Positions 47,701 to 49,429 are shown, counted from the stretch's first letter. The stretch is 64,000 bases of DNA from Candidatus Spongiisociaceae bacterium (GCA_965219685.1 CBDCOH010000002.1:1792001-1856000), one strand, 5' to 3'. Numbers and translations are program-made. Notes: generated by a model from the letters alone, not told the origin.

Positions 47701-48401
47701 TGTCCGTGACCCTGACCGGTAGCCGACCGCTCTCCGAAGGTCCGGAGCATCCATCGCTTCGCTCTTACCAGCTCGGCCCCCGAGTCCTCCATCCGCAGTT
47801 TCCACAGCCTCTCGGGTCTGGCCTCCATCCCGAAGAGGGCGCCCCGGGCCTGCACGACCACCCGAGCCCGTTCTTCCAGGAACCAGAGTCGGGTGGCGGC
47901 TTCGAGGAGATCGCCACCGACCGACAGAGCTCCGTTGGCCGCCAGGAGCATGCTGAAGTCGTCGCCCAGCGTCGCCGCTACCCGGTCGGCGTGCTCGTCG
48001 GACTTGACGAGTTCGATCTCCGGATGGACCCGCACCCCCGCGCCTGCGATGCCACCGAGCCCATGGAGAAGGGGCAGCCGCTCGTTGGTGACACCCCATA
48101 CCACGGCGAAGGGAGGATGGCCCCTGCAGATGGCCACGACTCCGGGACGGGCCCGGTAGATGGCATCGTGCATCGGCGCCTCAAGGGGAAGCCGGTCCAC
48201 CGGACCCCCCACCGGAACGCCCGCATCGACCACGACCACGTCCTCGGCCGTGCAATCGGACATGGGACGGGTGCTGGTGATCAGGAAACCTCGCTCGGTT
48301 CGAGCCGATACATGCCCGAACGCTTCGACCAATCCGGCCGACGCAATCATCCGGGCGGTGGCCGCCACGTCGCTACGCCTCGAACGCGAGACCGAGATCA
48401 T
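47697..48401 (-). CDS. Class II aldolase/adducin-family protein (possible decarboxylase)
   Basis: AFGHVSAR and EAPMHDAIYRARP.V.AICRGH; the usual HxH reads RGH and the NHG motif reads ANG. Confidence 0.8.
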   Translation of the reverse strand: MISVSRSRRSDVAATARMIASAGLVEAFGHVSARTERGFLITSTRPMSDCTAEDVVVVDAGVPVGGPVDRLPLEAPMHDAIYRARPGVVAICRGHPPFAVVWGVTNERLPLLHGLGGIAGAGVRVHPEIELVKSDEHADRVAATLGDDFSMLLAANGALSVGGDLLEAATRLWFLEERARVVVQARGALFGMEARPERLWKLRMEDSGAELVRAKRWMLRTFGERSATGQGHGQ

Positions 48402-49429
48402 CGGCTGTCGAGCCAGGCAACGAGGTGGGTCAGGCTCTCCGGAAGGCCGAGTGGGGTGTCGTTGCCGTCGCCCCTCGCGTAGATGGCTCGTACCGCGCCC
48501 GGGGTCGCCTTGCGGCCTTCGGAGCGGAGCCGGACCGCCAGCCGCGTGCGAGCCTCCTCCAGTTGGTCCTGGCTCGGCATGACCGTCACGAGGTCGGGCG
48601 CCGTTTCCAGGACACCCATGAGTTGGACCGGCCCCTCGAGCCCGCTCCGCGACATGGACAAGCCCTCCGCTCTCCGGAAGGCCCGGTCGGCCAGGAAGCT
48701 GCGATGTGTCAAGCCCGGAGACACCCAGGCGCCGATCGCCGCGTAGTACGGAGACAGCCTCGTCAGTGACTTCGCGATCACTTCTGCCAGGTAGTTGTGA
48801 GTCTCGGCGTAGGCTTGCCGTTCCGCGGGTCCCCACCTCCACTTGCCGTTGCTCAACGGGACGGCGGTGCAGTCCTCCCGCTCGGGCGAGACCGAGGTGC
48901 CCCTCGCCTCGAAGAGTCCGGGATCGTCGTAGGCAGCAGCCGGACTCCGACGCCCCTCCCAGTAGTAGATGTTGGAGTAGGGCACGATCGCCAGAGGTTC
49001 CGAAAGCACGAAACGGTCCAGGTACACGTTCCCCTTCTGCAGGGGACCGTCGTGCACCAGAGCCGGATGCTCACCTTCATCCAGGTAGTCGTGCAGGTCT
49101 ACGGGTGCCGCGGATGCACCGTGCGGCGCCCAGCCTGCCGCCAGCAGCGCCCCGTTGATGGCGCGATGCTCACGACTCGTCGAATACGGCTTGAACTTCG
49201 TGCAGGGGATCAGCAGCGCGACGCGACGGGCACCCGCCGCCGTGTCGGGCGGCGCCCACCGGTCCGCCACGTACTCGTGGAATGCGGCCACCTCGGGATG
49301 GCTCATCGCATCCCGATTGGCCTGCGGGGAGTAGAACCGCAGTGACGGATCCAACTCGAACGGTGGACGGATCTTTCGCGCCGACTCGTCCCAGCGGGAG
49401 TCGATCGTCGCTTGCTCTGTGATGGTCAT
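48398..49429 (-). CDS. Hypothetical protein with an archaeosine synthase (ArcS/DUF5591)-like domain
   Basis: LLIPCTKFKPYSTSREH and LSEPLAIVP...PAAAYD resemble the PCxxxKPYxxSxxH and SPLGxVP...YD motifs; GGGAGG RBS. Confidence 0.6.
   Translation of the reverse strand: MTITEQATIDSRWDESARKIRPPFELDPSLRFYSPQANRDAMSHPEVAAFHEYVADRWAPPDTAAGARRVALLIPCTKFKPYSTSREHRAINGALLAAGWAPHGASAAPVDLHDYLDEGEHPALVHDGPLQKGNVYLDRFVLSEPLAIVPYSNIYYWEGRRSPAAAYDDPGLFEARGTSVSPEREDCTAVPLSNGKWRWGPAERQAYAETHNYLAEVIAKSLTRLSPYYAAIGAWVSPGLTHRSFLADRAFRRAEGLSMSRSGLEGPVQLMGVLETAPDLVTVMPSQDQLEEARTRLAVRLRSEGRKATPGAVRAIYARGDGNDTPLGLPESLTHLVAWLDSR

Follow-up and report, generated by a model that had tools for sequence, protein, structure and literature searches.

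The window analysed here, a 64,000-nucleotide stretch of DNA from Candidatus Spongiisociaceae bacterium (GCA_965219685.1 CBDCOH010000002.1:1792001-1856000), encodes on its minus strand (48398-49429) a stand-alone protein of 343 amino acids (aa), which profile searches and alignment relate to DUF5591, the C1 core of archaeosine synthase (ArcS). The evidence leans towards this protein being a soluble enzyme derived from the ArcS C1 core, which takes part in the catabolism of an imported nitrogen-rich small molecule through nitrile- or amidine-type carbon chemistry.

The gene starts with an ATG codon, 5 nt downstream of a GGGAGG ribosome-binding site, and is separated by 18 nt from the stop codon of the preceding DUF1989 gene. 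Its own stop codon (TGA) overlaps the ATG of a class II aldolase-like gene (ATGA, 48398-48401), the product of which begins with MISVSRS. Included in the 343-aa product are the strings LLIPCTKFKPYSTSREH (residues 72-88), LSEPLAIVP (residues 142-150) and YD (residues 167-168). The gene, its ribosome-binding site, its coupling to the aldolase gene and these strings had been described in the original prediction, and all are present in the open reading frame (ORF), while the strand, on which the original prediction was silent, could be established as minus.

Homology to the archaeosine synthase core

The Pfam DUF5591 profile (PF17884) matches the protein at 26.5 bits against a cut-off of 26 (E 6.6e-6; positions 1 to 44 of the 150 in the profile) and constitutes its sole Pfam match at E ≤ 10, with no TGT, TGT_C2 or PUA domain detected at this threshold. 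Two ArcS alpha-subunit models of NCBIfam match at 33 and 28 bits, against cut-offs of 440 and 600, respectively (best E 2.1e-8), with the ArcS equivalog NF040592 not being reached (33.2 bits against 440). The protein incorporates the exact PC-X3-KPY-X2-S-X2-H motif (P75, C76, K80, P81, Y82, S85 and H88), which excerpts from PMC10516641 describe as confined to the C1 catalytic core of ArcS, and the motif residues are without variation in 36/36 and 40/40 aligned family members. The family profile finds a single PDB sequence match, AF0587 (2q07), extending over 23 residues across this motif (E 0.002). Comparison of the family (36 sequences) with archaeal DUF5591 (19 sequences) using hhalign gave a probability of 98 % (E 2.7e-13), placing residues 40-170 on the first ~90 archaeal columns, a span that includes both conserved blocks and an insertion of ~33 residues. 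In the second block, SEPLAIVPY...PAAAYDDP aligns with TSPLGxVP...PAxxYDxP of ArcS, with Glu144 replacing an invariant ArcS serine. The ArcS-like core, inclusive of the insertion, occupies residues ~40-170, while residues ~170-343 make up a family-specific extension with no counterpart in ArcS or any Pfam family (residues 170-343). Precomputed PF17884 annotations are present on many of the homologs and missing from many others. Judging from these profiles and alignments, the protein and the ArcS DUF5591/C1 core share a true but partial homology. Both the resemblance to DUF5591 and the absence of recognisable TGT and PUA domains had been anticipated in the original prediction and are borne out, the profile searches it had proposed finding DUF5591 similarity rather than none.

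An AlphaFold2 model built with the family alignment (predicted local distance difference test, 92.2; predicted template modelling score, 0.91) was compared against viral models (BFVD) using Foldseek. The best match was the DUF5591 protein ArcS2 of Vibrio phage nt-1 (E 1.5e-3; probability 1.00), with template modelling scores of 0.41 on the query and 0.59 on the 226-aa phage protein, followed by a next viral match at E 0.13. A search of the ESM Atlas gave only the family's own clusters. The structural comparison suggested in the original prediction succeeded in part: a stand-alone phage ArcS2 ranks first among the viral models, and no solved ArcS structure was retrieved. Support at the level of the fold is mixed, and it is chiefly the motif and the comparison of profiles that argue for homology.

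A word-indexed protein search (E ≤ 0.001) identified 474 homologs, of which the 120 listed, on which names and lengths were judged, are mostly ~335-367 aa long and all unnamed or hypothetical. Exhaustive searching of 50 % representatives gave 86 matches, among which true ArcS proteins with TGT and PUA domains (P0189 and P0194; 599 and 596 aa) emerge only at ~E 1e-5, across residues 37-103. At 6.1, the median isoelectric point (pI) of the family lies below the 8.7 of split ArcS with PUA, and being near-neutral it fits a metabolite enzyme. A single fused form was found among the search matches, a metagenome protein of 730 aa (P0129) that combines a LacI-type regulator (helix-turn-helix and periplasmic-binding-like domains) with a DUF5591-like part at residues 389-724; it is known from one contig and could represent a merged gene call. 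Literature searches on DUF5591, DUF1989, enamidase and DUF1185/PF06684 gave no account of the family or its gene cluster, the paper listed for DUF5591 being on phage deazaguanines and the ArcS2 supplementary alignments of PMC10516641 lying outside this coverage.

A catabolic gene set conserved across phyla

Relatives of the protein are encoded in 190 stretches of species-representative genomes, the best eighty of which were used for locus counts. These derive from sponge-associated Acidimicrobiia, from Actinomycetes (Actinocorallia, Microbacterium, Herbiconiux, Mycolicibacterium austroafricanum and Nocardioides), from Chloroflexi and from a few Acidobacteria and Alphaproteobacteria. Using tblastn with the window neighbours, and further families obtained by clustering the ORFs of the eighty loci, at least one of the catabolic enzymes could be found in 77/80 loci. 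The three exceptions comprise two short loci of 4.2 and 6.0 kb and one of 15.4 kb (L078), which has FolD and an asparaginase-like protein as flanking genes. Among the forty-nine loci flanked on either side by 8 kb or more, the most common neighbours are TRZ/ATZ deaminases (47 loci) and class III aminotransferases (45 loci), followed by DUF1989 and aldolase II proteins (37 loci each), enamidase homologs (36 loci), AA_synth/DUF1185 proteins (35 loci), and hydantoinases, isochorismatases, CrtI-like proteins and O-methyltransferases (34 loci each). GntR regulators (25 loci), aldehyde dehydrogenases (24 loci), a lipoprotein binding protein without Pfam match (23 loci), CN_hydrolases (18 loci), HDAC-like amidohydrolases (14 loci) and Bmp/PnrA binding proteins (12 loci) occur less frequently. 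The gene set is retained across phyla while its order is shuffled. The minimal cluster, found in Microbacterium, Mycolicibacterium and Nocardioides, comprises an ATP-binding cassette (ABC) importer, the DUF5591-like gene and genes for aldehyde dehydrogenase, aminotransferase, TRZ, CrtI-like and O-methyltransferase proteins, mostly with a GntR regulator. The neighbourhood survey called for in the original prediction accordingly finds the homologs in the company of hydrolases and other catabolic enzymes, and not of tRNA- or DNA-modification genes.

This context bears on the possibility that the protein modifies a 7-deazaguanine in tRNA or DNA, as do ArcS and phage ArcS2, a role which would agree with the stand-alone C1 core it shares with ArcS2, with the position of ArcS2 as top structural match and with the presence of a TGT in the genome. 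However, the neighbour families conserved in at least 10/80 loci are hydrolases, the aminotransferase, dehydrogenases, transporters and regulators, and no TGT/DpdA, QueC/D/E, PUA or radical S-adenosylmethionine family is found among them. The genome's sole TGT, of the bacterial type (G000, C2:315222-316277), is located ~1.5 Mb from the gene, and neither QueC (best 21.9 bits, or 23.4 with neighbouring in-frame matches, against a cut-off of 22; 56 of 210 positions) nor QueF (25.1 bits, below its cut-off) could be convincingly identified in the genome. A TGT without convincing QueC or QueF suggests that the genome depends on salvaged queuosine precursors. Given also the acidic to neutral pI and the embedding of the gene, through overlapping codons, in a hydrolase operon, action on a nucleic acid appears exceedingly unlikely. 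The lack of TGT and PUA domains, the median pI and the use by ArcS of a free nucleoside and nucleotide were counted in favour of a free metabolite, and the protein probably acts on one that is rich in nitrogen.

The ATGA overlap with the aldolase-like gene and the short distance to the DUF1989 gene could be expected of a pseudoenzyme, that is, a non-catalytic subunit, chaperone or sensor serving the neighbouring enzymes, a role that has been proposed for inactive cognates in certain families of hydrolases. DUF1989 enzymes are known to form heteromers with inactive cognates, as noted in part of PMC11271267, and the LacI fusion of P0129 also counts in favour of this reading. Gene order nevertheless varies by lineage, and none of the neighbours is constant: upstream may be situated DUF1989, a binding protein or an isochorismatase, and aldolase II, aldehyde dehydrogenase or an enamidase homolog downstream. 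Moreover, every motif residue is invariant, as is more typical of an active site, and a non-catalytic role is thus considered very unlikely.

In the window, the minus-strand operon runs from a hydantoinase-like gene (54368) to a GntR regulator (41627), and most of its junctions are 4-nt overlaps. The first gene encodes a hydantoinase/dihydropyrimidinase-like amidohydrolase (52758-54368; 536 aa; profile matches; 41/80 loci), which is followed by an isochorismatase-family hydrolase with weak matches to BiuH and RutB (52000-52755; 251 aa; 42/80 loci) and an AA_synth/DUF1185 protein (51422-52003; 193 aa; 43/80 loci) matching PDB entries 2qtp (E 5.5e-40) and 3byq (DUF1185; E 1.3e-22). A representative of the latter family (L039:2500-3081) scores 190.7 bits against PF06684. 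Next are an enamidase homolog of the amidohydrolase type (50224-51411; 395 aa; PDB 2vun enamidase, E 2.9e-104; 49/80 loci) and, directly upstream of the DUF5591-like gene, the DUF1989 protein (49448-50050; 200 aa; Pfam, 137 bits; 51/80 loci). The ATGA-coupled downstream gene encodes a class II aldolase-fold protein (47697-48401; 234 aa; Pfam Aldolase_II), for which the best NCBIfam model is 3,4-dihydroxyphthalate decarboxylase (58.8 bits, below the cut-off) and the best PDB match is Mlr6791 (2z7b; E 2.4e-9), a pyridine-dicarboxylate decarboxylase of vitamin B6 catabolism. Its nearest kin are (hetero)aromatic acid decarboxylases. Further downstream are a class III aminotransferase (46441-47664; 407 aa; Pfam, 361.7 bits; 53/80 loci) and a TRZ/ATZ-type amidohydrolase of the aminoheterocycle deaminase family (45056-46444; 462 aa; profile matches; 67/80 loci), nearest to purine-type aminohydrolases, with a methylthioadenosine/S-adenosylhomocysteine deaminase as best PDB match (4f0r; E 4.6e-69). 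A CrtI/amine-oxidase-family oxidoreductase dependent on flavin adenine dinucleotide (FAD) (43485-45059; 524 aa; profile matches; 42/80 loci), a small-molecule O-methyltransferase-family protein (42517-43488; 323 aa; Pfam; 40/80 loci) and the GntR-family regulator (41627-42520; 297 aa; Pfam; 30/80 loci), which is the final gene in the chain of 4-nt overlaps, complete the operon. All of these genes are on the minus strand. A conserved neighbour of 396 aa is no paralog of the DUF5591-like protein (hhalign, 0.6 %).

Two candidate substrates were rejected on the basis of these genes. Carotenoid tailoring, to which the CrtI and O-methyltransferase genes might point, was set aside because both show translational coupling with the genes for the deaminase and the aminotransferase. 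Guanidine or carboxyguanidine was set aside because the DUF1989 protein occurs in one copy and scores 108.8 bits against the urea-amidolyase-associated (carboxyguanidine deiminase) equivalog, below its cut-off of 284.7. The original prediction had correctly recognised this neighbour as DUF1989, but its use as a pointer to amidine chemistry is a weak argument, given this score and the lack of DUF1989 in the minimal clusters of Microbacterium, Mycolicibacterium and Nocardioides.

A second operon (28218-35454) encodes an HDAC-like amidohydrolase on the minus strand and, on the plus strand, an ABC ATPase, a permease, an NMT1-like lipoprotein binding protein, a CN_hydrolase and a second TRZ/HutI-like amidohydrolase. 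As homologs of these genes directly adjoin the DUF5591-like gene in Actinomycetes, the pathway seems to be divided between two operons in the window. The lipoprotein binding protein has a lipobox, no Pfam match and NMT1/THI5-like features, the last of these being a lead only. Importer genes near the homologs encode NMT1-like binding proteins in 34/80 loci and Bmp/PnrA-like binding proteins in 19/80 loci. The binding-protein ORF of the window (30985-33234, plus strand; 749 aa) contains an in-frame tandem duplication of 1041 bp (31150-32190 and 32191-33231), the copies of which are perfect save for five mismatches, all at the junctions, and which is either very recent or an assembly artefact.

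Several further observations concern individual loci. At the head of the window operon (54559-57239, minus strand) are a succinate-dehydrogenase/fumarate-reductase-like flavoprotein and Fe-S subunit, which accompany the DUF5591-like gene in only 2/80 loci, while a homolog of the FAD subunit of a molybdenum hydroxylase is located just past the operon (57541-58446, plus strand). In an alphaproteobacterial metagenome-assembled genome (L077:1681-5368), the DUF5591-like gene adjoins a xanthine-dehydrogenase-type molybdenum hydroxylase with a Pfam-supported large subunit, an FAD subunit 37 % identical to that in the window and an unannotated ORF of 155 aa between its subunits. The divergent locus of Kaistia dalseonensis (L080; 7230-20129) encodes a CobW GTPase, a flavin N-hydroxylase-like monooxygenase, the DUF5591-like homolog, a 324-aa protein, an AraC regulator and a 2-oxoglutarate-Fe(II) oxygenase, and then aminotransferase-, HDAC-, aldehyde-dehydrogenase- and TRZ-like genes. 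The sole Rfam riboswitch match is a glycine riboswitch aptamer (L047:664-762, minus strand; 55 bits) at ~9 kb from the Mycolicibacterium austroafricanum homolog, and is probably unrelated to the cluster.

Proposed chemistry and substrate

ArcS joins the amine of lysine to the nitrile of preQ0, and accepts the preQ0 nucleoside and its 5'-phosphate, according to the portions of PMC11298593 that treat its substrates. The protein in the window has probably descended from the C1 (DUF5591) core of this enzyme through the loss of all nucleic-acid-binding parts and the gain of a C-terminal half of ~170 residues. In the proposed mechanism, the invariant Cys76 would attack the nitrile- or amidine-type carbon of a free metabolite to form a thioimidate, assisted by the invariant motif residues Lys80, Tyr82, Ser85 and His88. 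Where the lysine amine would resolve the thioimidate in ArcS, water would do so here, possibly with the family-specific invariant residues Glu87 and Glu144. Hydrolysis rather than amine transfer would thereby release ammonia or an amine and leave an amide or acid. Within the wider pathway, the aminotransferase and aldehyde dehydrogenase may convert a side-chain amine to an aldehyde and then an acid, to be removed by the aldolase-II-fold decarboxylase. The TRZ/ATZ protein would deaminate the ring, which may afterwards be opened by the hydantoinase, enamidase and isochorismatase hydrolases. From homology and context, the substrate of the protein may be a nitrile, an amidine or a deazapurine; for the pathway, an amino-substituted N-heterocycle or a cyclic amidine is the most probable compound.

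A number of observations weigh against this scheme. The DUF5591 match exceeds its Pfam cut-off by just 0.5 bit with 44/150 positions covered, and the hhalign alignment extends over only ~90 columns, so that the 150-position domain is not matched over its full length. The match to nt-1 ArcS2 falls just outside E ≤ 0.001, and Foldseek searches of PDB gave no match at this threshold for either the full model or a confident separate model of residues 36-175. No riboswitch that could name the ligand is present near the clusters in the window and fourteen diverse loci at the Rfam gathering thresholds. In the part of PMC11298593 dealing with free substrates, ArcS does not act on the free preQ0 base, while the extracts of PMC5485725 document a thioimide for QueF and QueF-L alone, and the literature examined does not demonstrate a nucleophile role for the ArcS cysteine. 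The conserved methyltransferase and CrtI-like genes fit nowhere in the scheme. Furthermore, the invariant or near-invariant ArcS consensus residues S, E and S are replaced by Glu87, Arg139 and Glu144, which are themselves invariant in the family, and the chemistry may consequently have changed altogether.

These replacements, along with the half of the protein that is new, would be in keeping with a catalyst of the same pathway for which the ArcS-like core is a nucleophile-bearing scaffold and which has nothing to do with nitriles or amidines. Such a catalyst might, for instance, hydrolyse, cleave as a lyase or isomerise an intermediate of the amide, ureide or enamine type. Amide and ureide hydrolases dominate the operon, and no conserved neighbour is expected to make or need a nitrile. 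However, the full Cys/Lys/Tyr/Ser/His motif is invariant across phyla and has preQ0 nitrile-to-amidine chemistry as its sole known role, while at least six further C-N hydrolases in the pathway already cover ordinary amides. Such unrelated chemistry appears somewhat unlikely, and the nitrile- or amidine-type reaction is preferred.

In one specific form of the nitrile- or amidine-type reaction, the cluster would encode an undescribed route for the breakdown of free 7-deazaguanines, whether preQ0, preQ1, queuine or archaeosine base. Here the ArcS-core protein would turn a 7-cyano or 7-formamidino group into an amide or acid, the reverse of QueC, and the aminotransferase and aldehyde dehydrogenase would take the aminomethyl group of preQ1 to 7-carboxy-7-deazaguanine (CDG). 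The aldolase-II-fold enzyme could decarboxylate this product and the TRZ/ATZ protein remove its 2-amino group, while ring opening would fall to the hydantoinase, isochorismatase and enamidase. The only known chemistry of the fold, the nucleoside-type Bmp/PnrA proteins in 19/80 loci, the purine-deaminase relatives of the TRZ protein and a published suggestion that viral ArcS may revert preQ0 to CDG (excerpts of PMC10516641) all fit this pathway. A thiamine-pyrimidine, an ectoine-like cyclic amidine or another heterocycle fits about equally well, and 7-deazaguanines as the substrate are considered distinctly unlikely.

Comparison with known systems

In the literature examined, DUF5591 is not known outside the catalytic core of an enzyme that modifies nucleic acids in archaea and their viruses and phages. 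If the proposed function is true, its recruitment to small-molecule catabolism extends the chemistry of the fold, and flags a large conserved pathway of at least twelve genes for a nitrogen-rich compound. Sponge symbionts carry the bacterial branch in abundance, and it also occurs in cultured Actinomycetes. As cultured carriers exist (Microbacterium aquimaris, Actinocorallia aurantiaca and Herbiconiux moechotypicola), the function is open to direct testing.

On the strength of its conserved residues and profiles, the protein belongs to the ArcS C1 superfamily. With ArcS C1/DUF5591 it shares the exact PC-X3-KPY-X2-S-X2-H motif, the second block ((S/T)xPLxxVP...PAxxYDxP) and a profile-profile probability of 98 % over ~90 columns. 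Unlike ArcS, it has no TGT-like N-terminal domain, C2 domain or PUA domain and no RaSEA-type partner among its conserved neighbours, carries the ~33-aa insertion, a new C-terminal half of ~170 aa and Glu87/Arg139/Glu144 in place of Ser/Glu/Ser, and is encoded by a bacterium, within a catabolic operon. It is not ArcS proper, since it falls short of the equivalog score, lacks the TGT and PUA domains and has no such partner among the conserved neighbours. Among solved structures, a sequence match was obtained solely to AF0587 (2q07), a split ArcS C-terminal half carrying C2 and PUA parts; the match lies across the motif, and Foldseek retrieved this structure with neither model of the protein.

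The ArcS2 proteins of phages and viruses (Vibrio phage nt-1, R9TEI9; STSV-2) are likewise stand-alone, and that of nt-1 provides the best structural match among viral models. The nt-1 protein converts dPreQ0 in DNA to dG+, as given in excerpts of PMC10516641. ArcS2 is found with DpdA and preQ0 genes, while the present family, with a 343-aa member in the window, is found with hydrolases and importers. With its different context and length and its added half, the protein is not a phage-type ArcS2. The T-fold nitrile enzymes QueF and QueF-L have an unrelated fold and are comparable by analogy only. Their cysteine forms a thioimide on the nitrile of preQ0, which is resolved by hydride or ammonia (PMC5485725, in part), and this serves as a model for the chemistry proposed here.

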